This document shows, piece after piece, positions 1,447 to 47,861 of a DNA stretch of 64,000 nucleotides. The notes below the pieces were generated by a model. It ran no database searches and had not been told where the DNA came from. It was given only the letters and a program-made list of their open reading frames with translations. The position numbers and the translations under genes were made by a program. The first letter of the stretch is position 1. Each line of letters opens with the position of its first letter. Location of the stretch: sequence record PZ445442.1. One strand, given 5' to 3'. The DNA comes from a phage.

Positions 1447-2133
1447 ATGGCAGAGATTAAGTCGGATGTTAACCACATCCACACTCTGCCAGATTTTGTT
1501 CAGGGAGGTCTTGACTACCTACCTGGAGATTTTCTGGCTGAGAAGGTTAATTTAGTCACATTCTTAACCGTATACCTTAAAAGGTTGGAGGATGTTGATA
1601 AGATGCTGGTAGGTTTGGCTGAAGGAAGATTGCTTAACAATGCCAGCGGAAGATACCTCGACGAAGTTGGTAATCAACTTGGTATTCTTAGGAATGGACT
1701 TTCAGATGCTGATTTTCGTGCCACACTAATTATTCAGCAGGCCGCAGCATCAAGGGGCGGGACTCGCGAAGATGTCATCTCCACCTTGCGACAATTGTTC
1801 GGAAGAGACAATTTCGATACGTGGAAAGGAGACAACTTCAGGTTTGACATAAATATTAGAAAAACTTGCTTTGACATATTGCAGTCTATCGATCAGATCT
1901 TAGATATGCTACCATTGCCTTGTCATTTGCGTCTTACAGAATCGCAAGGGCAAGCTTTTGGTTTTGAAGGAGACTCTACAGCTCTTGGCTTCGGATCAGT
2001 GTGGGAAGAAAACCAATTCGGAGTTGGTGGGCTGGCTACTTTGCTATATGTTCCTGACGTAAGACCTGATTGGGACACCACAACCATTTATTGTGAAAGT
2101 ATTACAGTAAACGCAACTAGACAGGAGGGTTAA
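1447..2133 (+). CDS. hypothetical structural protein (baseplate/tail module)
   Basis: 228-aa ORF tightly packed in the late operon, ATGA overlap with next gene. Confidence 0.5.
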   Translation: MAEIKSDVNHIHTLPDFVQGGLDYLPGDFLAEKVNLVTFLTVYLKRLEDVDKMLVGLAEGRLLNNASGRYLDEVGNQLGILRNGLSDADFRATLIIQQAAASRGGTREDVISTLRQLFGRDNFDTWKGDNFRFDINIRKTCFDILQSIDQILDMLPLPCHLRLTESQGQAFGFEGDSTALGFGSVWEENQFGVGGLATLLYVPDVRPDWDTTTIYCESITVNATRQEG

Positions 2134-4205
2134 TGGCAACAGCTGTTTTTAAACCTTACCGTGATTACTCTACAATGGCTGCACAGTTTCATTACCGAAC
2201 AGTTCAGGATACTGCCGTTCCTGGTAGAGATTATAATCATGTTGAGGGCGATGTAACTATCCCAATTGGGGCAACCAGTATTGAGATCCCAGTGGAAATT
2301 GTTGACAAATTACCCAACAGGTTACCAAGAAGCTTCTTTATGGAGTTTTCATCAAAATCTCAAGGGGTGATGATTGGGACACAAAGGGCGAAATGTACAA
2401 TAGTTTCAGATGAGAATCTTGACAGGATATCTTGGGATACTGTCGAGGAGAGAATGTTTCACCCAAGATATTGGGTTACAACTACTCAGCAGACTGAAAG
2501 TACTTGTATTGTTGCAGATAATAACTGTTGTATTAACCGTTTAGTGTCAAGAACATATGGAGGTATGGCTGGATGCATTTGGGAAACAGTTGACAAGTAT
2601 GACCATTTCGGTATTGGGTTTGATGATCACTATGAGATGAGAAACACCAAGCTTTGGTTCAGAATGTCAATAACCAACGCCAGCAACTTCTCCACTCCTG
2701 AAAAGATGATTATGACTGTAGACCTTGTTGATGGCACAATCATCTATGTTCCTTTAGCTCAATATGCTGTCAGCATCTCAGAGGATAAGAATGTTGCAGA
2801 AATTCATATTGATTTTGAGGACTGCGTCGGGATGGACCAGAACAACAACATGATGGGTGTTGATCCTCGGCAGGTGAGAAGGATTTTAATACCGCTCATG
2901 CCTAAAGACTGGGTAAGTAATAGCACAGACCCGAGAACGGAAAATGTAGAGTGTGAGTTGCGCCTAGATTTGCTTCAGCCAGACACAGGCTGGAAAATGA
3001 TGCAACTTAACAATATTCAGGTGAGAGAGCACGACGTTGGGATCTGCACCGCATATGACGATATGTGGAACGTATCTCCTTTAAGGGTGTTGAACAATAT
3101 CAAGCGTCTGGGCTATACCGGAACCATAAACCATTATGTTGGTATGAGTCATTATTATGACTACACATGGTCAGGAACCCAATGGTCTATAAACAGAACA
3201 GGAGCGCTAAACGCTGCAGCTTATAAATGGCATGATGATTTTATGTACAATGCCAAACGACATAACTTCGACGTTATGCAATCTGTAAGTTTTGAGCTTT
3301 TCAGCGATGCCTGCCCGTTGGAATGGACCCAAAGAGACTGGAACGATAACTACGCTAAAACAGGGTATACACCTTGTAGCTACCTCCTGTCTCCAACCAT
3401 TGAAGAGGGTATGAATTTCCTTACTGCAGTATTTAAGAATTTTGCATCAGCCGCTATGAGAAACAACCTGCCAGTGATTATGCAGGTTGGTGAACCGTGG
3501 TGGTGGTACAATACCGATACTCGTAAACCTTGTATTTATGATTACCCTACAAAACAGGCGTTTTATGATGAGACAGGCGAGTATGCATTAGATATTGGGA
3601 CTATTGACGATCCTAAAACTGGCGGTGTTTACGACAAGTATGTAGCATTTTGTCGTGGTAAGCTTGGCGCTCGTATTGCGGCTATTTCAAAGGCAATAAA
3701 GGCACACGCTGCATCAGCTCAGATGACAGCTTTGCTATTTTTCCCAACTATTATGGAAACCGAGCTTACGCAAAAGCTGAACCTTGCTGACCAATATAAA
3801 AAGGAAGCCGGAGCTCTTGATTTCTTCTGCACTGAGTGCTACGATTGGGTGATGCAGGGAGGTATTGAAAAGGCAAAAGAGTCTGTAAACATACCTATCG
3901 TTAAGTTAGGTTGGCAACCGTCTGAAATACAATACCTTGCAGGGTTCGTTCCTAGTAAAGAGCTTGCTCCGGTATATGGCTACGACCCAACTAGGAATTA
4001 CCAAGAATTTTTATGGAGATGTATTTGCGGAAACATGGCAACTATAGAGTATAGATACCCTGAGGTAAAACAGTATGTGTGGGCATACCCGCAAGTAATG
4101 TCTGACAGCATCACTGTTACCGCTAGAGATTCTACCGTGCTTCATATGGGGCAGGTTGCTCTGAAAGGGTATGTAGAAGATGTTGTCCCGCCAGACTTCT
4201 CATAA
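2133..4205 (+). CDS. hypothetical large structural protein (baseplate/tail)
   Basis: 690-aa ORF, translationally coupled to upstream gene, immediately upstream of tail fibre. Confidence 0.5.
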   Translation: MATAVFKPYRDYSTMAAQFHYRTVQDTAVPGRDYNHVEGDVTIPIGATSIEIPVEIVDKLPNRLPRSFFMEFSSKSQGVMIGTQRAKCTIVSDENLDRISWDTVEERMFHPRYWVTTTQQTESTCIVADNNCCINRLVSRTYGGMAGCIWETVDKYDHFGIGFDDHYEMRNTKLWFRMSITNASNFSTPEKMIMTVDLVDGTIIYVPLAQYAVSISEDKNVAEIHIDFEDCVGMDQNNNMMGVDPRQVRRILIPLMPKDWVSNSTDPRTENVECELRLDLLQPDTGWKMMQLNNIQVREHDVGICTAYDDMWNVSPLRVLNNIKRLGYTGTINHYVGMSHYYDYTWSGTQWSINRTGALNAAAYKWHDDFMYNAKRHNFDVMQSVSFELFSDACPLEWTQRDWNDNYAKTGYTPCSYLLSPTIEEGMNFLTAVFKNFASAAMRNNLPVIMQVGEPWWWYNTDTRKPCIYDYPTKQAFYDETGEYALDIGTIDDPKTGGVYDKYVAFCRGKLGARIAAISKAIKAHAASAQMTALLFFPTIMETELTQKLNLADQYKKEAGALDFFCTECYDWVMQGGIEKAKESVNIPIVKLGWQPSEIQYLAGFVPSKELAPVYGYDPTRNYQEFLWRCICGNMATIEYRYPEVKQYVWAYPQVMSDSITVTARDSTVLHMGQVALKGYVEDVVPPDFS

Positions 4206-6269: not shown

Positions 6270-7316
6270 GTGATGACTAAACCAGTTATCCCTCTTGATA
6301 TTTGGGCCAATCAGGATGTTGTGCTTGAAAATACGGGAGAGTTGAATAAGTCTCAACCAAAAAAAGAAGATAGATTGAAAGGTTGGGATATGACACAAAG
6401 AATGGCATGTGAAGTTGTTAACTTTGAACTTCACATGCTTTCTGCGTGGTTAAAGCATCTAACAGAAGATGTTGTCCCAGGATGGGATAATAGATTCTTA
6501 AGGGTCACTAATAATCTAGCAGACGTTCCAGACAAAGCTGCTGCACGTCAAGTTCTCAATGTATACTCGCCTGAAGAAATGGACGATCTGTATGTTGACA
6601 AGTCTGGAGACATAATGACTCAGACTCAAACTTTAGGTCTTCAAAGAATCGAGTTTGCATCTGCGTCAACAGACAATGCGGCAATATATACCACCATAAC
6701 TCCAGACAAGACGACGATGGATTTCTGGATTATGGACAACATCGGTGGTGCTGACGGCACAGACCTTGATGATCCTTCCCACCAAATAGACGGGTTCCGT
6801 TGGAGATTTCAACCTTCTGGTGGGCAGCCTGTGTTTTCGGCTATGAAGCTCAATGCTATAACTGCCAATCGTGCAAGACTGGCCATCCAAGGAAATCTTG
6901 AATGCAACGATGCAAAAAGTTCCTCTGCAAATGCCAATGCGGTCACGATACCAAGAGCCACTGTTAATGGACAACAATCCTGCGGAAGCGCTCAAATAGG
7001 TGGAAGAGTTGATTGTAACGATGAAACCGTCAGGGGCCAATATGCAACAGTTGGTGGAAGAAACGTGGTCCGCAGGGTAAATGGTAACAGCGCAGACAGT
7101 AGCGGTAACCTTACTATCCCTATTCCTAGCAGAGGGGTTGATGATGTAAGGATAGCAAACCGTTTTAAAACCACCTACAGAGAGTCAAGAGTCTACCCTG
7201 GACATGTGATGTGCTCTGGCAACTACGCTTATAAACACCCTTATCAAGGTGATTACTGGACAGGTGCTATCCAAAAACTTGTAAATGGTCAATGGATCAC
7301 TATATCTTATGCTTAA
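6270..7316 (+). CDS. tail fibre / receptor-binding protein, paralog 2
   Basis: 348 aa; conserved N-terminus (PLDIWANQDVVL..GWD), central FRWRFQP block and C-terminus IQKLVNGQWITISYA shared with 4218..5258. Confidence 0.6.
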   Translation: MMTKPVIPLDIWANQDVVLENTGELNKSQPKKEDRLKGWDMTQRMACEVVNFELHMLSAWLKHLTEDVVPGWDNRFLRVTNNLADVPDKAAARQVLNVYSPEEMDDLYVDKSGDIMTQTQTLGLQRIEFASASTDNAAIYTTITPDKTTMDFWIMDNIGGADGTDLDDPSHQIDGFRWRFQPSGGQPVFSAMKLNAITANRARLAIQGNLECNDAKSSSANANAVTIPRATVNGQQSCGSAQIGGRVDCNDETVRGQYATVGGRNVVRRVNGNSADSSGNLTIPIPSRGVDDVRIANRFKTTYRESRVYPGHVMCSGNYAYKHPYQGDYWTGAIQKLVNGQWITISYA

Positions 7317-7327
7317 AAAGAGGGTAA

Positions 7328-7594
7328 ATGAAACTAACTCAGTTTTTATGGGGACTGGTTGCGGCATCTGATGACCCTACGAAAGTGTCCCAATCTAAGC
7401 TATGGTCGAACATAGGCATGGCGGTGATGACTGGGGTGTTTATTCATATGGGGTATAATGATACGCTTCCTGAATGGTATGCGTGGATATACGCGCCTTC
7501 AGTAGCTTGCCCCCAGCTTATTAGCAAATTCATCTCGCTCCGGTGGGGTTGCCAGCACCCTGACCACGTTAAAAACGAAGAGCAAAAAGCTTAA
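7328..7594 (+). CDS. hypothetical small membrane protein
   Basis: 88 aa with hydrophobic segments; RBS-like AGAGGG upstream. Confidence 0.35.
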   Translation: MKLTQFLWGLVAASDDPTKVSQSKLWSNIGMAVMTGVFIHMGYNDTLPEWYAWIYAPSVACPQLISKFISLRWGCQHPDHVKNEEQKA

Positions 7595-7603
7595 GGAGAA
7601 ATC

Positions 7604-9349
7604 ATGGCGCAAGACATGACAAGCTTTGAGCAGGCGGTAGATCAAGTAATTGTTGATTCTGAACGTTTGCACCTGATTGTCAACGGTAACGCTGTGGATG
7701 AAGTTGTCGTAGAGGATGGGACCACCATCCCTACGGTACGAAAAGCCATGCTTGACACCCTTTATTTTAAAACGCCACCGATCCCTTGGGCGTATGGTGC
7801 ATCCACAACAGTTTTTAACCAGCTGTACGAGTTTAAAGGGGACACAGGCCCTCAGTGGTGGTACGCTCCCGCAGCATCAAAATCTAACCCGGTTAGAATG
7901 CCAGCAGATCCTTCACAATCTCCAAACTGGAGATTATATACCGATTCTGCAGTAATGGCAAAATACTACGCAAAACTTAACAGTCCGAGGTTTGAAGGTG
8001 ACCCGCGAGTACCTACGCCTCCAATGGACGACAAATCAGAGTCTATAGCAAACACAGAGTTTGTTGTTGACTATGTGGATAGCATATTTGAAGCCATGGA
8101 GGGAATGAAAGTTACTGTAGGGTCTTTGGTGGTAAAAGGTCTTACAGAACTTGCTAACACCATAGTTGGTGGCACACTCACCTTACATGGGCCTGTTAAT
8201 GGAGCAGATTCTACTGCACGCTTCAGGAACCTAATCCTCACGGCAAATACTTCTACACTTACTTTTGCGTGGAGTGATCCTAAGCATGCAGACTGGAGAA
8301 GCACAGAGCTGCAACCTTATGAAGTGTCCACCCACAGGGTTATAGCTGACACTATAACTTCTGGGAAACCAGTGGCTAATAATAACGATGTGCATTTTGA
8401 TGGTCTAGGTAATAACTTTTTTGACTACGTGTACATTCGTGGTAATGCCATGAAGGCAGCAACCGAACCGACATTGCAGGTAGATGGGACCACCAGGGTT
8501 AAGAACCTTGAGGTGACAGGTACTGTTACAGGGATAACCTACTCTGTCGATGGCACCATGATCTACCCTAGCTATATTGAAAGCACGGGGGACGCATTAA
8601 TAAATGGTGATTTAGAAGTTGGCGGATCTGTAGTTATTCGAGGTACAGCCTCTATCCAAAACATAGCTCTGAATACCTTAAGAGTCAATGAACGTGCAAC
8701 TTTTGAAGGAGAAGGACTTACAGCCAACAAAGGTGTAATTACCGAGCTGACAACCACCACTTTAACTGCAACAACTGCAAACTCTGAAAACTGCAACGTT
8801 ACCAGAAACTTGCAGGTAAATGGAGATGTTAGTTTAAACGCAGCAGGTACGGGCACCACCTACCTTCACAACCTTGAAATATCCGGCACAGTGACTGGGT
8901 GGCTGCCAGACTTCTCTAATGTCAACTTTGTTTGTAATGGCATTAACTCCAGTGGTAAGATAACTACCTCTCAAGAAATTGAGGCGGGTAAAACCATTAC
9001 TGCCCCTACTTTCCACGCAGGAAAGGTAGATTTTGATTTAGAGGAGGTTGACGCGTCCAGTGGGACATGGACACCCAACGGGCAGGCCAGCATGTATGTT
9101 GTCCACGCGAAAGGGGATTTTACAATAGGACAATGGCCTGGTACATCAGCGGAAGATAAACCTTATCCATTTACTGCAGTTATCTATGTCATTCAGGATG
9201 CTGTAGGTCACAACGTGACTTTGCACGATAAGTATGCTATCCTGTCGGCAACACCTGTTATTAACAACAAGGCTAACAGTGTTACCCTGCTGCAATTAAC
9301 ATATTGTGGTGTTGGTGATATCGTAGACGTAGTAATTGCACAACGTTAA
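7604..9349 (+). CDS. tail fibre / tailspike-like protein
   Basis: 581 aa, Thr/Gly/Asn/Val-rich repetitive beta-type sequence typical of fibre shafts; RBS AAGGAGA. Confidence 0.5.
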   Translation: MAQDMTSFEQAVDQVIVDSERLHLIVNGNAVDEVVVEDGTTIPTVRKAMLDTLYFKTPPIPWAYGASTTVFNQLYEFKGDTGPQWWYAPAASKSNPVRMPADPSQSPNWRLYTDSAVMAKYYAKLNSPRFEGDPRVPTPPMDDKSESIANTEFVVDYVDSIFEAMEGMKVTVGSLVVKGLTELANTIVGGTLTLHGPVNGADSTARFRNLILTANTSTLTFAWSDPKHADWRSTELQPYEVSTHRVIADTITSGKPVANNNDVHFDGLGNNFFDYVYIRGNAMKAATEPTLQVDGTTRVKNLEVTGTVTGITYSVDGTMIYPSYIESTGDALINGDLEVGGSVVIRGTASIQNIALNTLRVNERATFEGEGLTANKGVITELTTTTLTATTANSENCNVTRNLQVNGDVSLNAAGTGTTYLHNLEISGTVTGWLPDFSNVNFVCNGINSSGKITTSQEIEAGKTITAPTFHAGKVDFDLEEVDASSGTWTPNGQASMYVVHAKGDFTIGQWPGTSAEDKPYPFTAVIYVIQDAVGHNVTLHDKYAILSATPVINNKANSVTLLQLTYCGVGDIVDVVIAQR

Positions 9350-15850: not shown

Positions 15851-16231
15851 TTATGACACTTTGACATAGCGCTCTGACAAAGCTGGGAAGCCAAAAGTAG
15901 TGCCTATACTACCGTACGCTATCCACCATTGAAGTTCATCGTGACACCATTTTCCGATCAGAAAGGTGCTGGGGTAGCGGGTCAGTATTTTGGCATAAGC
16001 TTTAGGATCTGCATCTTCTGGGATAATGATGCTTGGAATATCTTTGTTATGACCACAGCAGCAGTTTAGCGTTTTCAAACCTGCTGCCCACAAACTCATG
16101 ATAGGCTTAGCCATACACTTATCAAGGCACACACGTTTTTTGCCGTCACGAAGATTTTTAGGCACATCAACGATAACATTTGGATGCTTGGCACCTTTCA
16201 CTTTCCAATTATAGGATTTACACTTGCACAT
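15851..16231 (-). CDS. hypothetical Cys-rich protein
   Basis: 126 aa with many Cys (CKCK, CCCGH, WCH); likely metal-binding. Confidence 0.4.
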   Translation of the reverse strand: MCKCKSYNWKVKGAKHPNVIVDVPKNLRDGKKRVCLDKCMAKPIMSLWAAGLKTLNCCCGHNKDIPSIIIPEDADPKAYAKILTRYPSTFLIGKWCHDELQWWIAYGSIGTTFGFPALSERYVKVS

Positions 16232-16457: not shown

Positions 16458-16928
16458 TTACTCCGGTTCAGGATCTGGGTAATCTTCAATAATAAAGGGC
16501 CATCCGTTCCGCTTAGCCTCAGACTTATACTCAATCTCCTTCATTGCAAACTCTAACTGATTCTTAGCCGGAATACATGCCGGAGAATCATCAATCCAGA
16601 TATCTGGGTAGATATCAAACTGCGCCAGGTAGGCTGCCTTCTGAACACCACCTGTGTAGAACACACCAACATCGAGCTCCTTGCGCCAATACTCAATGTC
16701 TACATTGTCTTGAGTAATGAATCGGAAAGTCACAAGGTAGACTGTCCACCCCTCCTTCTTCAGATCCCTGATCAGGCGGGAGAAGATGAAAGGGCTCGCA
16801 TTAAACGTTCCATCAAAGTCGATGGCAATGATGTGCGTGCCGTGGCGAGTCTCATATGGATTGCTCGTGGTAAGATTGCTGTAATTAAAAGGGACTTCTT
16901 CCCCGCAGTAGCTGTAGTCCATATTCAC
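16458..16928 (-). CDS. HAD-superfamily phosphatase (nucleotidase-like)
   Basis: 156 aa with HAD motif I IIAIDFDGTF, conserved Thr (YLVTF), Lys and terminal IWIDD. Confidence 0.55.
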   Translation of the reverse strand: MNMDYSYCGEEVPFNYSNLTTSNPYETRHGTHIIAIDFDGTFNASPFIFSRLIRDLKKEGWTVYLVTFRFITQDNVDIEYWRKELDVGVFYTGGVQKAAYLAQFDIYPDIWIDDSPACIPAKNQLEFAMKEIEYKSEAKRNGWPFIIEDYPDPEPE

Positions 16929-17200
16929 ACCTTCTCGTTGATAAATTTACGGGCGGTTTGGTGAGTTGTTTCTGCTGTCTTCAGAATGATATTAATTTTA
17001 TCGTCAAGATCATTCATCTCGGCAGTTAATTCAGGAATCTCTCCGGCATGCATGGTGAAATCATACATAGACATGCCCAAGATCTCATTGATGCGGCGGT
17101 TGCATTCTGCAGCACGCTGGTTCATTTTCCAAGCTAACACCAAAGCCTCCTGCGTAGCCTCTAGTGCAAAATCTAATACGTCGGCCTCTTCTTTCGTCAT
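16925..17200 (-). CDS. hypothetical protein
   Basis: 91-aa ORF, 4-nt overlap with downstream gene (coupled). Confidence 0.4.
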   Translation of the reverse strand: MTKEEADVLDFALEATQEALVLAWKMNQRAAECNRRINEILGMSMYDFTMHAGEIPELTAEMNDLDDKINIILKTAETTHQTARKFINEKV

Positions 17201-17257
17201 CTTAGTCTCTCCTGTTGTATTGTTGGTAGGTGTATGAATACCTTATAACTCACCTTT

Positions 17258-17824
17258 TTATTCAAACTGCAATAGTAAGTCCACCACCGCGCTAGGTCTG
17301 TCAACAAATTCCCCAGGTCCACATGCCCACAGAGGGTATCCGTCTACATACCGCCAAATCCAACCTGCAGTGTGGAGTTCGAGCAGGGCAGTACCGTCCT
17401 TACTGTCAACCACTCTTTCCCACAGTGTCGGGCAGCGAAGCTTGAGGATCGGATCCCCTCCCTTATACCCATCCATGTAGATACCCATTGCAAAGTTCAG
17501 TATCATCTTTTTGTGCACTGATCTTTTACTGAGGGTACTCATCACTTCCTCTTTGTGAATGTTTGTAAGCTTCTCCTTGGCTACCCGCAGATCGTTGCAA
17601 CCATTGTTCAGCAGATCTTCCAGACACTTGATCCGAAGGTCGTGAATGTCTTTGTCGTGTACCGTTGGCACAGGGTCGTAGCGGTATAGCACTGTTGATA
17701 CAAGGTTGCTCGGGTGTGGGTCTGACAGCAACCCATAACCCCAATACTCTTCTGTATCTGAAAGGACAAGACACCCAATGTCTCTGTCAAGCTTTCCTGT
17801 GTTGTAAGCCACATTGACCGCCAT
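17258..17824 (-). CDS. hypothetical protein
   Basis: 188-aa ORF in minus-strand accessory block. Confidence 0.45.
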   Translation of the reverse strand: MAVNVAYNTGKLDRDIGCLVLSDTEEYWGYGLLSDPHPSNLVSTVLYRYDPVPTVHDKDIHDLRIKCLEDLLNNGCNDLRVAKEKLTNIHKEEVMSTLSKRSVHKKMILNFAMGIYMDGYKGGDPILKLRCPTLWERVVDSKDGTALLELHTAGWIWRYVDGYPLWACGPGEFVDRPSAVVDLLLQFE

Positions 17825-17826
17825 GA

Positions 17827-18072
17827 CTATAGCTCCACTAGCAAAGTGCTTTCAAAGTGACGTTCATGCAGACCGTTGTAAGGGACCACTTCCACAACGC
17901 CATCACGGACATATGGGGCCATCATGGTGGTATAATCTCCAAACGGGTTGGTATTGTCACTAACCACAACCACCTTCTGCCCTTCCTTGGCAGAGTGCCA
18001 AATAGATCTGCACTTCATCAGGTGTTCGAGAGCCCCAGGTAAAATTTTGTTACGTTCTTTACGGGTCTTCAT
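17827..18072 (-). CDS. hypothetical protein
   Basis: 81-aa ORF, tightly packed. Confidence 0.4.
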   Translation of the reverse strand: MKTRKERNKILPGALEHLMKCRSIWHSAKEGQKVVVVSDNTNPFGDYTTMMAPYVRDGVVEVVPYNGLHERHFESTLLVEL

Positions 18073-18518
18073 AACAGGTATAGCTCCTTATGAAAGTGAT
18101 CTTTTAATTTCTCACTGAGAAACTTCTTGATACCTTCCTCTAAAGTGTTTTCGATGTAGTCCAGCTTAACTGCTTCGATGGACATATCATAGATCGCCAG
18201 CTCTAAGCTGTCAAGTCCCATCATAGCATGAACCATAAGATTTTCATCTTCAGATACATTCAGGGGACTTCCTATAACATCTGGAGGCAGAATAGTTTCC
18301 CAATTATTCTGGGTGGTAGTTCTCCCTCCCTCTACTTTACGGCGCAGTTCGAATGTGTTCTTAGTGTAGAACACTTCATAAGAAACGATACGACTGTCGC
18401 TCTCGTAATAAACGAAGTTCAGGTAGGAGCCTAGCCGCAGTCGGCAAACTTCTACCCCAAACCATTGTTTCTTATAAGAATTCAGGCTAATGCTGTCGCA
18501 TTCACGTTTGCTCAACAC
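18069..18518 (-). CDS. hypothetical protein
   Basis: 149-aa ORF, 4-nt overlap with downstream gene. Confidence 0.45.
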   Translation of the reverse strand: MLSKRECDSISLNSYKKQWFGVEVCRLRLGSYLNFVYYESDSRIVSYEVFYTKNTFELRRKVEGGRTTTQNNWETILPPDVIGSPLNVSEDENLMVHAMMGLDSLELAIYDMSIEAVKLDYIENTLEEGIKKFLSEKLKDHFHKELYLL

Positions 18519-18534
18519 GGCTCTCTCCTTTTTG

Positions 18535-18771
18535 TTAATCTTCGTAAATCAGGATTTCTGCTTTAGGTTTTCGTGCTTTCATGTCCAGCTCTATCCAGTG
18601 CACCATAGCTGTTTCAAGAAAAACAGCCTGGATGCATCCGTCCTCAGCAGCGTGTCCTAGCAGCATAACAAGATCTTCTCCTTCGTCATCTGCATCACGA
18701 ACATACAGAATCTCCCCGGGTTCAAAATCTTTAACAACCTGATTGTTGGATAATTTACGAATTTTCGCCAT
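18535..18771 (-). CDS. small protein, member of tandem paralog family A
   Basis: 78 aa; shares the PGE/GTVV...hydrophobic core...E.D pattern with the three upstream 87-aa paralogs. Confidence 0.45.
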   Translation of the reverse strand: MAKIRKLSNNQVVKDFEPGEILYVRDADDEGEDLVMLLGHAAEDGCIQAVFLETAMVHWIELDMKARKPKAEILIYED

Positions 18772-18772
18772 A

Positions 18773-19036
18773 TCAGAAACCCTCTAAAAAGCTCTTGTAG
18801 AAAACAATCTCAGTATCCACACCAGTCACAATCTTGTCGTTCCTGATTTCATCGGTAAGATAGGTGTCAAAACGCAGAACCTGTGTGGTGTTGTCACACA
18901 TCCACTCAGCTGTGACCATTGCGAAAATCTTAGCATCTTCATTATCTGGTGTGAATGTTACCACCTCACCGCACTTAAACTTTTCGATAGGCTGAGTGTT
19001 AGCTTTCGGTTCTGCGATAGTGATTTTTGTGGTCAT
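18773..19036 (-). CDS. small protein, tandem paralog family A
   Basis: 87 aa; CGEVVTF...VTGVDTEIVF resembles neighbours. Confidence 0.5.
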   Translation of the reverse strand: MTTKITIAEPKANTQPIEKFKCGEVVTFTPDNEDAKIFAMVTAEWMCDNTTQVLRFDTYLTDEIRNDKIVTGVDTEIVFYKSFLEGF

Positions 19037-19299
19037 TATTCTCCTCCTTCTTTTGAATAGCTTGTCTCTCCAAGGATGGTAATTTTGGTGTCAAGCTCTG
19101 TAACTTTCATGTTTGGCGGCAGATCGTACAACTCATTATTTTCTAAATCGAACCCCCACACACAATGTTCTCCTGTTTTGACAATCATAACTATGTTTTG
19201 AATGCCGTCTCCGTCGCAACTTACCACGGTCCCACACGGAAAACTGTCTGCACGCTTTTTGTTCTTCACCTTAGAATTGAATACAATGCTGGTAGCCAT
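19036..19299 (-). CDS. small protein, tandem paralog family A
   Basis: 87 aa; PCGTVVSC...VTELDTKITILGE resembles neighbours. Confidence 0.5.
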   Translation of the reverse strand: MATSIVFNSKVKNKKRADSFPCGTVVSCDGDGIQNIVMIVKTGEHCVWGFDLENNELYDLPPNMKVTELDTKITILGETSYSKEGGE

Positions 19300-19562
19300 T
19301 ATTGTTCCTCCACCATAACTTCGCCAAGAATTTCTATGCAGGCATCCATTTCTGTAACAACCAAACTGTGAGGCAGTTCTACAAACACCTTTCTGAACAG
19401 GTCAAATACCCCAACATATATGTTTGCAGGATGTGATTTTACAACAAGTGCTGTATTCACATCCCCAAGTTCATCAACAAACATCACCACAGTGCCTGGA
19501 GCTACTGAGGACAGATACTTCTTAGTTTTACGGTTTGATGCAAATTTTAACTCTGTTGCCAT
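19299..19562 (-). CDS. small protein, tandem paralog family A
   Basis: 87 aa; APGTVVMF...VTEMDACIEILGE resembles neighbours; start and stop overlap neighbours. Confidence 0.5.
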   Translation of the reverse strand: MATELKFASNRKTKKYLSSVAPGTVVMFVDELGDVNTALVVKSHPANIYVGVFDLFRKVFVELPHSLVVTEMDACIEILGEVMVEEQ

Positions 19563-19577
19563 AAATAACCTCCTCTC

Positions 19578-21059
19578 TTACTTAGCGTACTCGATTAATT
19601 CCACAGTTTTCCCAAAGCTCGGGATATAATTTTTATTATACCCCTCAGTGAGGACCCATAGAGTATCGTACTTTTTCCACTTGTTGTCAACAACCTTTTG
19701 TTCAAAGTTATGCTCAAAGTATAGGTCGGTCAGGACGATGACATCTTTTGCATTAGGTATGTTGGCATCCAGATACTCGAACACGCAAGCAGCTGTTGTG
19801 CCCCATGTTGAGTGGACCTCATAGTTGACCATCTCGTCTATGTTGCCGCGAGTGTATACTTTAACCTCTCCAACCTCAGTTGACCAACAGAACATTGTAA
19901 CCTTAAACTCTTTATACAGATTGCACAATCCGGTGATTTCATTGAACATTTTCTTTAAAGTTCTTTGAGAGATCGAGCCAGAAACGTCTAAAGCCACCAC
20001 AATATCTATAGTGTTTTCCGGATTACGACCAGGAACAATAACGTGCTGGTTCTTGTTTATAGTCCCAACTTTTCGCATTGTGCTGGTCAAAGACCCAGAT
20101 CGGCGACCAGGTTTTCTGTAGGTCAGTTCGGCCTTTCTTTTAGACAACATACGTTGCTTAATGATGTCTATATAGTTGATTACAGGCCTACCTCTGTTCT
20201 TGACAAACTCACGCACCGCCTCAGGGCAACGGCCTCCGGACGCTTGCATTGCTGCCTCCAGCATATCACCAGAGTCCTGCATGGCCTGATCTTTATCAGA
20301 TTGGCTGATTACAGGTTGTGGCTGATCATACCCCATAGCCTTTCCAAGATTATCACTGGTGCCACCGTTCCCACTCATGTGATCATCGGTTTGTCGCTTA
20401 TCACTTTGAGAGTTCTCACCTTTACCGTTCTTACTTTTACCGTTATTCTGATCTCTTTGCTTATCAAGAACTGCATAAACGTTCTCAGCAATCCATCCAT
20501 GAAACTTCATGTCGCAGTAGCAGCTGGCTAAGAAGCCAAAAGGCTTACCTTTCATGAACGTAGTGCTTTTCCCCTTCGGGAAGAAAACACAAGGAGGTTT
20601 GCTAAAGTCAACCACAAGGCCTGTGTTGATAACGTGATCACAAGCAATATTGAACAGTTCCGGCTCAAAGCTTTTACCACGGACTAGGTGATCACAGATA
20701 ATATGCCCCACCTCATGTGACAGAAGAAAGGCCACCTCTTTCACAGATTTTGGGGAATAGAAAACCTCAGCCATCTCAAACTGCTTGTCAGTCAGAGATG
20801 CTTTAAGAATGGTTTTACGCTCATCTGCCAACCCCATAATGAACTCAGGGCTGTAGTAGATGCGTTTATGGTCTGTTGCCATAGTGGAGCACCATGTGTG
20901 GTTTTCTACGAACTGCAACCCTGACAACAGTGTGCCATAAAACGGCAGCTTTTCAAGAAGGTACATGCGAGCGGCCTGCAGCATTCGCAAGGCATCATCT
21001 TTTTGTGCGGTAATGATTTCTGAACTTCTGCTATCCATTAAAACTCCAGAAGGGGCCAT
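19578..21059 (-). CDS. vWA-domain protein with HExxH metallopeptidase-like N-terminal domain
   Basis: 493 aa; HEVGHIICDH (HExxH) in N-terminal half and MIDAS-like VVALDVSGSIS (DxSxS) in C-terminal half; start may be the downstream Met (MDSRSS) because the first ATG lies within a GC hairpin. Confidence 0.6.
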   Translation of the reverse strand: MAPSGVLMDSRSSEIITAQKDDALRMLQAARMYLLEKLPFYGTLLSGLQFVENHTWCSTMATDHKRIYYSPEFIMGLADERKTILKASLTDKQFEMAEVFYSPKSVKEVAFLLSHEVGHIICDHLVRGKSFEPELFNIACDHVINTGLVVDFSKPPCVFFPKGKSTTFMKGKPFGFLASCYCDMKFHGWIAENVYAVLDKQRDQNNGKSKNGKGENSQSDKRQTDDHMSGNGGTSDNLGKAMGYDQPQPVISQSDKDQAMQDSGDMLEAAMQASGGRCPEAVREFVKNRGRPVINYIDIIKQRMLSKRKAELTYRKPGRRSGSLTSTMRKVGTINKNQHVIVPGRNPENTIDIVVALDVSGSISQRTLKKMFNEITGLCNLYKEFKVTMFCWSTEVGEVKVYTRGNIDEMVNYEVHSTWGTTAACVFEYLDANIPNAKDVIVLTDLYFEHNFEQKVVDNKWKKYDTLWVLTEGYNKNYIPSFGKTVELIEYAK

Positions 21060-21066
21060 TGGCCCC
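21046..21066 (-). terminator. GC stem-loop between tandem minus-strand genes
   Basis: GGGGCC-loop-GGCCCC hairpin immediately downstream of stop of 21072..22061. Confidence 0.4.
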
Positions 21067-21071
21067 TGTCA

Positions 21072-22061
21072 TTATTTAACGTGCTTGAAAATACCAGCCA
21101 CCTCGGTCATTGTCATGCGAGTGGTCTTCATAAGGTCTGTCATAGCCTTCTCCATGATTGGAGATACTACCATGAAGTTACCTTTGGTGAAACCTTTGTT
21201 CCAGTCGGTAACTAATAGGGGTTTAAGTCCGGCACCGAGACGTTCACCAGTTAAAGCACAACATTTTCGAATGTATGTGCTCTTAAACTGGCTGAATGAC
21301 AGATCAACTTTCATACCTGCATCGTAGAACGTCTGGCAATAGAAAGTGTAAGCTTTGGCAATCTCAACATCGTCAGGCAGTGCAGGAACCTCTTCTGTAA
21401 GCTCTTCTTCGACTCCTTGAGGCTCTTTTTCCTCTTCGTAAGCCTGTTGCGTCATCTCTTCAATCTCCTCTACTACAGGCTCGTTTACAATGTCAGAAAT
21501 GTGCTTGTTGGCTCCACGATTAGCCATGAAGTTTTTAAAATCCTGCATTGGTGACATATCTTCCTCCCATTCTTCGTCAAAGAGTGCTAGTTTATCCTCT
21601 TCCGTTCCATATTGCAAGATGAAATCTTCAAAAGTGTAATCACCTTTCAATTTCTCCATACGCTCTTCGCTCAGGTGGAGCATCATCTGCTGGACAATTT
21701 TTCGATCAGTTTTGTCTTTAATCAAGACTGCGGTCTTTTTATCTACCAGACAGTCCTTTAGAGAGTTGCATCTCAATCCCACCACACAACAGTTATCAAC
21801 CGCATAAGGACCTTCATCATCTATCCGCTCTAGAGATGGGTAGAAAGGATTTCCCAGTCCGTTTTCATCTGTGTGCATGTCGAAAGGTATAAGGGTATAG
21901 TCGCATACTCCCTCTCCTAAAAGTTTTTTACCAAATAGGAGATATTCTTCCCATGACAGGTTGAACTCTATATCTCGTTTCCGTGCATTATTCTGTTTGC
22001 GTCTGTATTTTTTGAGCAAGCGCTCTAACTCTTCTGGTGCATAATATTTTTCAAGATTCAT
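21072..22061 (-). CDS. hypothetical protein with HNH-like N-terminal motif
   Basis: N-terminal SLERIDDEGPY..DN..VV resembles the DRID..GY..N motif of the HNH ORF at 45972; start moved to Met23 because a TTGACA-17-TAAGAT promoter lies inside the track's longer ORF. Confidence 0.45.
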   Translation of the reverse strand: MNLEKYYAPEELERLLKKYRRKQNNARKRDIEFNLSWEEYLLFGKKLLGEGVCDYTLIPFDMHTDENGLGNPFYPSLERIDDEGPYAVDNCCVVGLRCNSLKDCLVDKKTAVLIKDKTDRKIVQQMMLHLSEERMEKLKGDYTFEDFILQYGTEEDKLALFDEEWEEDMSPMQDFKNFMANRGANKHISDIVNEPVVEEIEEMTQQAYEEEKEPQGVEEELTEEVPALPDDVEIAKAYTFYCQTFYDAGMKVDLSFSQFKSTYIRKCCALTGERLGAGLKPLLVTDWNKGFTKGNFMVVSPIMEKAMTDLMKTTRMTMTEVAGIFKHVK

Positions 22062-22092
22062 GAGTTGTCTCTTGTTCTCTGTGGGTGGAGAA

Positions 22093-22121
22093 ATCTTACC
22101 AAGCGCCTGGGGAGATGTCAA
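22093..22121 (-). promoter_or_regulatory. sigma70-like promoter for minus-strand accessory block
   Basis: On minus strand TTGACA-17nt-TAAGAT, upstream of ATG at 22061. Confidence 0.45.
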
Positions 22122-22134
22122 CCTCAAAAACGCG

Positions 22135-22163
22135 TTGACTTTACTTTAAATCTCCGATATAGT
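22135..22163 (+). promoter_or_regulatory. sigma70-like promoter for plus-strand gene block
   Basis: TTGACT-17nt-TATAGT about 40 nt upstream of the 22204 start; back-to-back with the minus promoter. Confidence 0.45.
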
Positions 22164-22203
22164 GCACCCATTCGAAAGAAAACTAACATAGGAGCACTTA
22201 TTC

Positions 22204-24432: not shown

Positions 24433-24702
24433 ATGTTATACCAGCAATATGAACTTCGTGCAGAAAAAGAGTTAAATTTTGACAAAGATATTCACAGATA
24501 TTATTATGGGAAAGTTAGAGGGCAAGCAAGAAAGTGTACTCCAACACTCTTTTATGCCAGCAGACGACTAGCGCCAGAAGAGGCAACAGCAGAAAGGGTT
24601 GCGTACAACTGGAGAGTCACGTATGATATTGACAGATTCGATGTGATATCTGTTTTGGAAAACTTTGAAAACACTTACACACAAGTAGAGGACTTTTACT
24701 AA
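24433..24702 (+). CDS. hypothetical protein
   Basis: 89-aa ORF, RBS AAGGAG. Confidence 0.45.
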   Translation: MLYQQYELRAEKELNFDKDIHRYYYGKVRGQARKCTPTLFYASRRLAPEEATAERVAYNWRVTYDIDRFDVISVLENFENTYTQVEDFY

Positions 24703-25886
24703 TGTCAAGAAACGTATTCGAAAGTGGTCAAATCACTGTCCGTGAGTTGCCAGCTATTATTCAGTTTGCCCAACGTCATAGCCGATCTGTCCTAATTTTG
24801 GGACCAATGGGTGTGGGTAAAAGCCAGGTGATGAAGCAGATCGCTGATAATATGTTCGGTGAGCGAGATGACAACCTTGTTGACGTGCGACTGTCAGATA
24901 AAGATCCTGCCGACTTATCTGGGCTACCTATCCCTGTAGAAGCGGATGGAACTACACGTACAGTGTTTGCAATTCCAGAATTTTGGCCTGCGGATCCTGA
25001 CTGGAGCGGAATTATCTTTCTGGATGAGCTCACTCATGCAGATAACTACCTGCAAAAGGTTGCAATGCAAATTATGCTTGACCACAAGTGCGGCACCTAT
25101 GCATTCCCTAAGGGTTCTGTTTTTGTGGCTGCGGGTAACCGTTCTACAGATGGTGCGGTTCTTTCGGCGCTCGAAGCCCCTCTGGCTAACCGTTTTATCA
25201 TTGTAGAGGTTACAAGCAATGCAGAGGTGTTTATTGAGGACTACGCATTCCTCAACGGGGTTCACTCCTCTGTAATTGGGTATCTGAAAAGAGTTCCATC
25301 AGCTATTGATAATTATGAGGCTATGGCTGAGATTAATTGTCCATCTTTTGCCACACCACGATCTTGGGTTGCTGCATCTGACATCTTGCACGATTTTGAC
25401 AGCGGTATTATTTCTGACGCTATGGCCCGTGTTCTTCTGCAAGGTGCTATTGGTCACACTGCAGCGGTAGAGATCTGGACATACCACACCAAGAAACGCA
25501 ATTTACCGGAAATCGGTCGGATTATGGCAGGTGGCTGCAAAGAATACGTAGGTCCTAAGCAGCCAGACATTTTGTGGATTCTTGGATCTGAAGGTTGTAT
25601 CGCTATTCGTAATATGATGGAAAATGCAAGTATCTCAGACGAAGATCTTGTCAGCTGTGTGGCAAACTTCCTCGATTTCCTTTGGGAAAACTTCAAGGAC
25701 GAGAACCGAGATTTTGTATTCTCAGTCTTTATGGCGATGATGAAACCTAATGCCTTAGGAAATGCCTTGCTTATCGGTAAAGGGCGTGACAAGATTGTTG
25801 CTCAGCTGATCAAAGCATACCCAAACCTGATGAAGATTGTAAAAGAGTTTGGTGAAGAGTTTAGCGCCATTTTGGCTAAAGCTTAA
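24702..25886 (+). CDS. MoxR-like AAA ATPase
   Basis: 394 aa; Walker A LILGPMGVGKSQ and Walker B IIFLDELTHAD. Confidence 0.6.
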   Translation: MSRNVFESGQITVRELPAIIQFAQRHSRSVLILGPMGVGKSQVMKQIADNMFGERDDNLVDVRLSDKDPADLSGLPIPVEADGTTRTVFAIPEFWPADPDWSGIIFLDELTHADNYLQKVAMQIMLDHKCGTYAFPKGSVFVAAGNRSTDGAVLSALEAPLANRFIIVEVTSNAEVFIEDYAFLNGVHSSVIGYLKRVPSAIDNYEAMAEINCPSFATPRSWVAASDILHDFDSGIISDAMARVLLQGAIGHTAAVEIWTYHTKKRNLPEIGRIMAGGCKEYVGPKQPDILWILGSEGCIAIRNMMENASISDEDLVSCVANFLDFLWENFKDENRDFVFSVFMAMMKPNALGNALLIGKGRDKIVAQLIKAYPNLMKIVKEFGEEFSAILAKA

Positions 25887-47435: not shown

Positions 47436-47861
47436 ATGATCTATGAAATGCCAAAACTGATTCGCGACGATGCCCAAAACGCTCACACCATTATTATGGG
47501 CAAACGCATGGATATTATTTGTCATAGAGATTTCTGGGAAGGAAGTTACTTCACAGAGTATTTTGGTAAACTGGACAATGGTCTGCTGATCCAGTTCTAC
47601 ACCGATGCGGAAAACAACATTCCCTGGGAGTTCGAAACTGAAGATGTCCATAAACTTTTCACCTTCCTCGGTATTAAGGTTAAGGCCAAGTTTGAAGAAG
47701 GTGAGTGCGACGATTGTGGATTTTATGAGGTAACAGATTTCTACCTTCCTAGCGGTAAGAACCTTTACTATGAAAGCCACTTCGGTAACTCCAATATGCC
47801 ACAGTGCTGGACTGAGTTTTTTGAAATTGCGGAAGAGGAGCTGGCTTACCGTGATTATTGA
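47436..47861 (+). CDS. hypothetical protein
   Basis: 141-aa ORF directly upstream of and overlapping the macro-domain gene. Confidence 0.45.
   Translation: MIYEMPKLIRDDAQNAHTIIMGKRMDIICHRDFWEGSYFTEYFGKLDNGLLIQFYTDAENNIPWEFETEDVHKLFTFLGIKVKAKFEEGECDDCGFYEVTDFYLPSGKNLYYESHFGNSNMPQCWTEFFEIAEEELAYRDY

Follow-up and report, generated by a model that had tools for sequence, protein, structure and literature searches.

A tandem family of four small proteins in an rV5-like phage, with a conserved pair and a replaceable cassette

Between the gene for a DUF2201 metallopeptidase and a gp17-like gene, the phage DNA of sequence record PZ445442.1 carries a row of four small genes on the minus strand, here called A to D. 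The stretch analysed, called the window below, is 64,000 nucleotides long, and the row occupies its positions 18535–19562. The four genes are true tandem paralogues that descend from one ancestral gene in this slot. They encode real, co-oriented, selectively maintained small acidic proteins, and the orthologues of C, of D and of the single gene that stands in for A and B in other phages (the gp014 type, after phage rV5) are individually dispensable on Escherichia coli K-12. Few genes of the region are as conserved as C and D, whereas the first slot diverges like an accessory gene. The reading preferred here, at roughly even odds (about 0.5), is that A–D are early-made, stand-alone binding modules acting on host or phage macromolecules, with a conserved target for C and D and a strain-variable one for the first slot.

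Most early genes of rV5-type phages, which are in wide use against pathogenic E. coli, are uncharacterised. In megablast searches, window positions 16900–22200 match Escherichia phage EmilHeitz (Bas49, MZ501062.1), an rV5-like member of Vequintavirus, at 100%, and 118 further related records match them at 90–99%. A–D are annotated coding sequences in MZ501062.1 (bas49_0054 to bas49_0051), all as hypothetical proteins, and genes of the family carry the same annotation in more than 100 Vequintavirus genomes. The original prediction, made from the DNA letters and a list of open reading frames (ORFs), placed four consecutive minus-strand genes of 78–87 amino acids (aa) here, which is exact in both the ORF list and the sequence:

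19299–19562, minus strand: paralogue A, 87 aa (bas49_0054), first gene of the A+B cassette
19036–19299, minus strand: paralogue B, 87 aa (bas49_0053), second gene of the A+B cassette
18773–19036, minus strand: paralogue C, 87 aa (bas49_0052), the ultra-conserved member
18535–18771, minus strand: paralogue D, 78 aa (bas49_0051), the most diverged member

Already known were the hypothetical annotations and the cataloguing of the genes in three PHROGs, and small accessory beta-barrel proteins in a variable early region are a familiar kind of phage gene. New are the unification into one family, a model-based fold assignment, the contrast between a cassette and a conserved pair, and the link to transposon-insertion data. 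The literature on Bas49 (Avs8, KpAvs2) concerns capsid and terminase, not A–D.

One family of tandem paralogues

The paralogy that had been proposed from the sequence holds for all four genes. A and B are 37–39% identical, with a blastp E value of 2.7e-12 to 1.7e-11 depending on settings, and their Smith–Waterman alignment has z = 17.9 against 2000 shuffles. C and D are also related at the pairwise level (z = 6.7, p about 1e-4). In the same comparison against shuffles, p is about 1e-3 for B and C and 0.02 for B and D, and the alignments of A with C and of A with D are not significant.

The connection between the two pairs therefore comes from three independent lines: hidden Markov model (HMM) ranking, profile–profile comparison and a bridging relative. 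Among all 285 ORFs of the window, an HMM of A, B and gp014 scores C, and next D, immediately below its own members, and the HMMs of C and of D place each other and B next after their own sub-families. In hhalign, a profile of 68 sequences of the A, B, gp014 and S types (the last from a sister clade, see below) was compared with C and D, with 20 column shuffles as controls. C was matched along 78 collinear columns with a probability of 93.4% and P = 2.5e-7 (its score was 40.4, the shuffle maximum 14.1). The match to D had 85.9% and P = 5.2e-6 over 68 collinear columns (score 33.4 against a shuffle maximum of 15.7), so that no shuffle scored above 16, and both links strengthen steadily as the profile is made deeper. 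Finally, P0045, a single-copy relative of the S type, matches the gp014 type (1e-9), B (8e-5), C (3e-4), A (4e-4) and D (7e-4). The multiple alignment of the family is almost without gaps; G23 and I76 are invariant, and the hydrophobic residues F20, V26 and L54 nearly so.

PHROGs treats the same proteins as three unrelated families of "unknown function", all with A–D as full-length members: phrog_10698 (A, E 7.6e-43; B, E 4.8e-41; also rV5 gp014), phrog_12861 (C, E 8.8e-62) and phrog_12046 (D, E 3.3e-54), each match running end to end. Here they become one family through the profile comparison, the bridging relative and the predicted fold. It could be argued from this division, from the two pairwise alignments that fall short of significance, and from the absence of C and D orthologues among the top 50 BFVD fold matches of the A model, that only A and B are paralogous and that C and D resemble them by chance or by convergence of small beta-rich proteins. 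This is extremely improbable, given that the sub-family HMMs rank one another first, that the full-length collinear profile alignments lie far above their column-shuffled controls, that one S-type protein finds all of the types in turn, and that the genes have length, position and predicted strand order in common.

The family ends at D. An 81-aa neighbouring gene (17827–18072) was considered as a fifth paralogue and rejected, as neither alignment nor HMM tests gave it membership. Within the array there are no direct repeats at the DNA level that could drive recent unequal crossover, and the duplications are therefore old.

Gene layout and probable translational coupling

Start and stop codons had been described as abutting. 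This is nearly so: the A/B and B/C junctions are TAATG, with an overlap of one base, and the C/D junction is TGAtATG, with one base between stop and start. Each gene has a Shine–Dalgarno ribosome-binding site of the GGAGG type ahead of it:

19569–19573, minus strand: ribosome-binding site of A, GGAGG-type, read from the sequence
19307–19311, minus strand: ribosome-binding site of B, GGAGG within the last codons of A (..VEEQ)
19043–19047, minus strand: ribosome-binding site of C, within ..KEGGE of B
18780–18784, minus strand: ribosome-binding site of D, within ..LEGF of C

Because B, C and D each have their own ribosome-binding site in the tail of the preceding gene, and because stops and starts abut, the four genes are very probably co-transcribed and translationally coupled. 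The same arrangement bears on the proteins, as the tails of A, B and C, acidic or rich in glycine, are in part dictated by the ribosome-binding site of the next gene. In agreement with this, the tail reads ..CGYAHR or ..ARQ in single-copy relatives, where a spacer separates the gene from the one that follows, unlike the tails within the array.

All four proteins are net acidic (charge −4 to −8, isoelectric point 4.5–5.0), and the GC content of their genes (0.40–0.43) is like that of the rest of the window (0.44). The common layout that had been proposed, a K/R-rich N-terminal segment, a P/CGTVV motif, a hydrophobic core and an acidic C-terminus, is borne out in part. The motifs APGTVV / PCGTVV and VTEMDACIEILGE / VTELDTKITILGE are present in the proteins as first quoted, and the basic segment is clear in A and B; it is weaker in C and D, and the acidic tail is in part a matter of ribosome binding. 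Scans of A–D and rV5 gp014 with Pfam, NCBIfam and PADLOC (whose models are of defence proteins) gave nothing usable, and A–D have no catalytic motifs and match no catalytic Pfam domain.

A predicted SH3-like barrel

Structure prediction had been suggested as a check on the relationship, and AlphaFold2 models for A and D, built on the family alignment, give the same fold. The A model has a mean predicted local distance difference test score of 81 and a predicted template modelling (TM) score of 0.69, and the D model scores 79.6 and 0.67. Each is an all-beta structure, the five core strands come in the same order in both, and A has two short N-terminal strands in addition. The models predict for A and D a five-stranded, strongly bent antiparallel barrel of the SH3/Tudor/KOW kind that can be superposed on known members. 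For the family as a whole this would mean that a flexible, partly basic N-terminal arm precedes a barrel of about 60 residues.

Sequence comparison gives little to set beside the models. Searches of PDB sequences with two family profiles found nothing significant, the best match being an Spt5 KOW domain at E 0.25. No member of the family reaches a threshold for Pfam SH3, KOW or Tudor, or matches them even at E ≤ 1–10. A bacterial SH3_3 repeat protein is a weak profile match (E 6.7e-4) in a search of 1.84 billion sequences. The "DUF1883" label that one relative, P0068, carries in a metagenome record was rejected, as neither P0068 nor six other relatives match Pfam DUF1883 at E ≤ 10.

SH3-like barrels are otherwise known from Tudor domains (SMN, TDRD), KOW domains (Spt5/NusG), the uL2 C-terminal domain, EF-P domain I, the C-terminal Tudor domain of UvrD/PcrA and SH3_3. 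Those are domains of larger proteins, whereas A–D are stand-alone proteins of 78–87 aa with an extra N-terminal arm. The fold neighbours of the A model in BFVD are uncharacterised phage proteins of 70–90 aa (Foldseek E 7e-4 to 2e-2, TM 0.5–0.7). They include proteins of Serratia phage Hera (A0A7T3N9D3) and Vibrio phage Thalassa (A0A2H5BHC0) and N4 gp21, which are like A in size and predicted fold but have no detectable sequence relation to it; as they are also unannotated, the likeness adds no mechanism.

Nucleic-acid binding is common among Tudor, KOW, uL2-C and PWWP barrels. It is thus conceivable that the paralogues bind RNA or DNA through the basic N-terminal arm and directly tune transcription or translation of phage or host. 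This is distinctly unlikely in view of the net acidic charge of all four proteins, the weakness of the basic arm in C and D, and the fact that no significant sequence match to KOW, Tudor or S1 families was found.

Distribution and history of the slot

The family has a narrow range. An exhaustive HMMER search of 1.84 billion representative sequences returned only 10 matches. A tblastn search with B (E ≤ 1) and a word-index search with A found Vequintavirus alone, and further word-index searches added only about 55 clusters of the S type to the Vequintavirus-type sequences. The S type is found on contigs of 120–145 kb that belong to an uncultured sister clade. Vequintavirus phages are the isolates closest to this clade; the metallopeptidase genes of the two are about 67% identical in nucleotide sequence. 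On this evidence the family appears confined to Vequintavirus and close uncultured relatives.

In the sister clade the slot holds a single gene. The order, seen in four contexts that cover two S-type sub-groups (70–79% amino-acid identity to P0045), is Srd-like gene, metallopeptidase, one S-type gene, gp17-like gene, gp18-like gene and two gp19-like genes. In Seunavirus and Mydovirus nothing intervenes between the metallopeptidase and the gp17-like gene, and neither side of the metallopeptidase has a detectable family member; none was detected in the Certrevirus locus searched around that gene either. Depending on the lineage, the slot thus holds 0, 1, 3 (rV5-type) or 4 (Bas49) copies. The S type is much closer to A, B and gp014 than to C and D, which leaves two possible histories: either C and D diverged quickly after duplication, or they were lost in the sister clade.

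In Seunavirus and Mydovirus the gene immediately upstream of the metallopeptidase is conserved and encodes about 86 aa, and it was considered as a member. No similarity to the family could be detected in it (hhalign P 0.07). It lies at these places:

L003, 3168–3428: upstream gene of about 86 aa
L004, 3175–3435: upstream gene of about 86 aa
L005, 3197–3457: upstream gene of about 86 aa

Some further features of these records are worth noting. One sister-clade contig (L014) has a TnpB/IS605 OrfB-like gene between divergent transcription units and two tandem gp19-like paralogues, where the window has one (17258–17824); the features in L014 are at 2119–3258 and 6938–8128. Sixteen records labelled "Campylobacter phage" (MG0656xx, e.g. 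L009 and L011) are 90–99% identical to E. coli rV5-like phages in this region. The two that were opened are flagged UNVERIFIED; mislabelling of the host, or contamination, is the probable explanation.

A replaceable cassette and a conserved pair

The promoter-proximal half of the array exists in alternative forms:

19040–19562, minus strand: cassette that can be replaced: A+B in the window, one gene of the gp014 type in rV5-type phages, A2+B2 in a third type

The two-copy form A+B is found in 44 of 118 genomes, and the other 74 have one gene of 85 aa, the rV5 gp014 type, which is about 40% identical to A and to B alike. Against rV5, identity stays near 97% as far as the ATG of A (19562), collapses beyond it, and is back at about 97% from around 19040, just before C starts. 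Judged by these breakpoints, the cassette is replaced exactly at gene borders. The third allele pair, A2+B2, is found on three contigs (L024–L026) and is 57% and 64% identical to A and B. Cassette type can differ within a species: Pr121LW, classed as Vequintavirus murica, has the gp014 type and Murica itself has A+B, which indicates that the cassette moves by recombination. An origin of gp014 as a recent recombinant of A and B was rejected, as it is about equally distant from both and the region stays unaligned to A+B in a distant blastn search.

With its sharp breakpoints and conserved flanks, the A+B/A2+B2/gp014 slot is similar to the variable accessory-gene regions described for phage genomes (10.1101/2023.04.06.535777), as closely related phages hold alternative small genes in it. 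It differs from them in that only the promoter-proximal half varies here and C and D are strongly conserved.

C is found in 118 of 118 records at at least 93% amino-acid identity, and the D orthologues of the nine genomes compared are 87–94% identical to D of the window. On L024, one of the A2+B2 contigs, identity to the window proteins is 98% for C and 95% for D, against 82% for the metallopeptidase and 61% for the gp17-like protein. The pooled pairwise ratio of nonsynonymous to synonymous substitutions (dN/dS) is 0.18 for A, 0.10 for B, 0.23 for the gp014 type, 0.02 for C (dS 0.70) and 0.06 for D, and the flanking genes have 0.06–0.07. These ratios show purifying selection on each of A–D. 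The proteins had been called fast-diverging from their low mutual similarity. For the first slot this is right in so far as it is polymorphic and diverging, but all four genes are under purifying selection (dN/dS 0.02–0.18), and for C and D the description fails. As old paralogues the four differ strongly from one another, and they are not now evolving fast.

A separate observation concerns C at the DNA level. Its nucleotide identity is 80–95%, against 96–99% for the gp17-like and gp18-like flanks, and dS is high, yet the protein hardly changes, a pattern which suggests that the alleles of C are old or that recombination has recurred there.

A C-type gene also exists alone. P0027, 81% identical to C, lies on a distant 137-kb contig (L030) without A, B or D, which indicates that C functions and moves without them. 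In that contig the gene is upstream of the Srd-like gene and does not adjoin the metallopeptidase; the metallopeptidase and the Srd-like protein there are 46% and 37% identical to those of the window. At L030 9080–10279 the gene stands beside homologues of window ORFs 47436–47861 (plus strand) and 15851–16231 (minus strand) that are 65–71% identical, against 31–46% for the backbone proteins. To judge from these identities, the region looks like a small island of horizontally shared accessory genes.

Neighbouring genes and the transcription unit

The array is flanked by, or lies downstream of, the following features:

22093–22121, minus strand: sigma-70-like promoter, TTGACA-17-TAAGAT with TG, upstream of the annotated start of the Srd-like gene (consensus match alone)
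21072–22127 (annotated start 22061), minus strand: Srd-like anti-sigma factor, first gene of the unit (annotation and PHROG)
19578–21059, minus strand: DUF2201 metallopeptidase with VWA-like domain (bas49_0055), upstream neighbour of the array (Pfam DUF2201_N E 4.6e-28, DUF2201 E 2.9e-11)
18069–18518, minus strand: gp17-like gene, 149 aa, downstream flank and other edge of the slot (homologues in Seunavirus, Mydovirus and the sister clade)

The Srd-like protein matches PHROGs named "decoy of host sigma70" and "Srd anti-sigma factor". In rV5, gp11 has been described as an Srd homologue, and genes 11–26 have been proposed to form one transcription unit from a sigma-70 promoter ahead of the Srd-like gene (PMC3606486). 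The rV5 record annotates promoter P11 at the corresponding relative place, and the promoter at 22093–22121 is probably the equivalent of P11, which drives genes 11–26. The rV5 genome paper makes no mention of gp14–16, and its main text leaves them off the list of virion proteins (PMC3606486).

Two annotation matters touch these neighbours. In the rV5 reference record the metallopeptidase is divided between gp012 and gp013, with a one-base gap relative to window positions around 19772–19800 (L007 2473–2718), which is either a frameshift or a sequencing error. Names derived from PHROGs look wrong and have spread over many records: the metallopeptidase and the Srd-like protein appear as "HNH endonuclease" and the gp17-like protein as "tail protein".

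Transposon-insertion data of Bas54

The HIDEN-SEQ preprint gives transposon-insertion maps of phage Bas54 (bioRxiv 10.1101/2025.11.20.689424). Bas54 is phage MaxBurger (MZ501093.1), and it has the three-copy arrangement: bas54_0054 is of the gp014 type (84 of 85 residues identical), bas54_0053 is C (86 of 87) and bas54_0052 is D (73 of 78). All three are classed as non-essential on E. coli K-12, where insertions disrupted 17/17 TA sites in the gp014-type gene, 13/15 in C and 12/12 in D (10.1101/2025.11.20.689424).

This result also bears on the idea that the paralogues are subunits of one hetero-oligomer, for example an Sm-like ring or stack of small beta-barrels, supplied in matched amounts by coupled translation, so that the array would be a single unit. 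The stop/start overlaps and embedded ribosome-binding sites do suggest coupled translation at similar levels, the proteins are of equal size and share a predicted fold, and C and D always occur together in Vequintavirus. The idea is quite unlikely all the same, as the three Bas54 members are dispensable one by one, copy number varies from 1 in the sister clade to 3 in rV5-type phages and 4 in Bas49, and a C-type gene stands alone in the distant phage contig. Nor do the models have the N-terminal helix of Sm and Hfq proteins: those of A and D contain no helix that reaches four residues, and there is no Pfam LSM match.

What the proteins may do

A host-interaction or anti-defence role, which the original prediction had raised, can be inferred from size, position and variability. 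In the preferred reading, the array would be a lineage-specific tandem expansion of one small cytoplasmic protein. A–D would be made early, from the sigma-70-type promoter ahead of the Srd-like anti-sigma gene, and each protein would dock as a stand-alone module onto a host or phage macromolecule and modulate its activity. The duplicates would have split into two classes, the near-invariant C and D and the swappable promoter-proximal slot. Since C and D are almost invariant, and C has been exchanged between distant phages, they probably contact a conserved target. The promoter-proximal slot is swapped and diverging, so it probably handles a factor that differs from one host strain to the next, for instance part of a defence or exclusion system.

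Several points weigh against this reading. The fold comes from shallow, single-family alignments, and since A is included in the alignment for D, neither model is independent of the other. Barrels of the SH3-like kind are moreover very widespread and point to no particular target or function. Early expression is read from consensus promoters only, and a promoter scan of the region shows no enrichment (19 found against 13.6 ± 4 expected from shuffles). In the comparison of K-12 with the one clinical isolate available, CFE311, none of the three Bas54 genes is significantly depleted of insertions: the log2 fold change is +0.46 for the gp014 type (q 1), +0.33 for C (q 1) and −1.32 for D (q 0.68) (10.1101/2025.11.20.689424). 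These values thus give no positive support to an anti-defence role of the gp014 type, C or D, although redundancy between paralogues could mask one. It is worth noting that in Extended Data Table 8 of the same preprint sheets S6 and S7 are identical, and that "K-12 vs CFE303" repeats the command line and numbers of CFE311.

A more specific proposal is a two-tier host-manipulation locus on one SH3-like scaffold, in which C and D, alongside the Srd-like anti-sigma factor, would inhibit or re-programme some conserved machinery of the host (such as RNA polymerase, the ribosome or a nucleoid protein) and the first slot would provide strain-specific counter-defence or exclusion. As a whole this is unlikely; if it were true, swapping the cassette should change which E. 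coli strains the phage can grow on. The array is in any case a defined and cheap experimental target, and should the variable slot set host range, or the conserved pair hit a core host machine, it would matter for phage engineering and for the understanding of host takeover.

The CFE311 data also point to the neighbouring gene. The metallopeptidase (bas54_0055; log2 fold change −2.20, q 0.009) and a MoxR ATPase (bas54_0063; −7.23, q 0) are conditionally required on CFE311, and according to the authors the MoxR ATPase is an anti-defence gene that acts against DS-28, a predicted system; the gp17-like gene (bas54_0051) has −2.28 at q 0.195 (10.1101/2025.11.20.689424). In Vequintavirus and the sister clade the gene immediately upstream of the family is always that of the metallopeptidase, and the paralogues might therefore be adaptors, substrates or regulators of this metallopeptidase/VWA protein and its MoxR partner. 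Such a role is distinctly improbable: insertions in the gp014-type gene, C and D are not significantly depleted on the isolate where the two larger genes are needed, Seunavirus and Mydovirus keep the metallopeptidase with a slot that lacks the family (and none was detected in the searched Certrevirus locus), and the lone C-type gene of L030 sits upstream of the Srd-like gene, away from the metallopeptidase. The small paralogues are accessory and are not needed, at least singly, for the anti-DS-28 function of MoxR.

In the window, about 3.6 kb separates the metallopeptidase gene (19578–21059, minus strand) from the MoxR ATPase gene (24702–25886), which is on the plus strand. The preprint names MoxR alone as the anti-defence gene, but the two may function as a pair.

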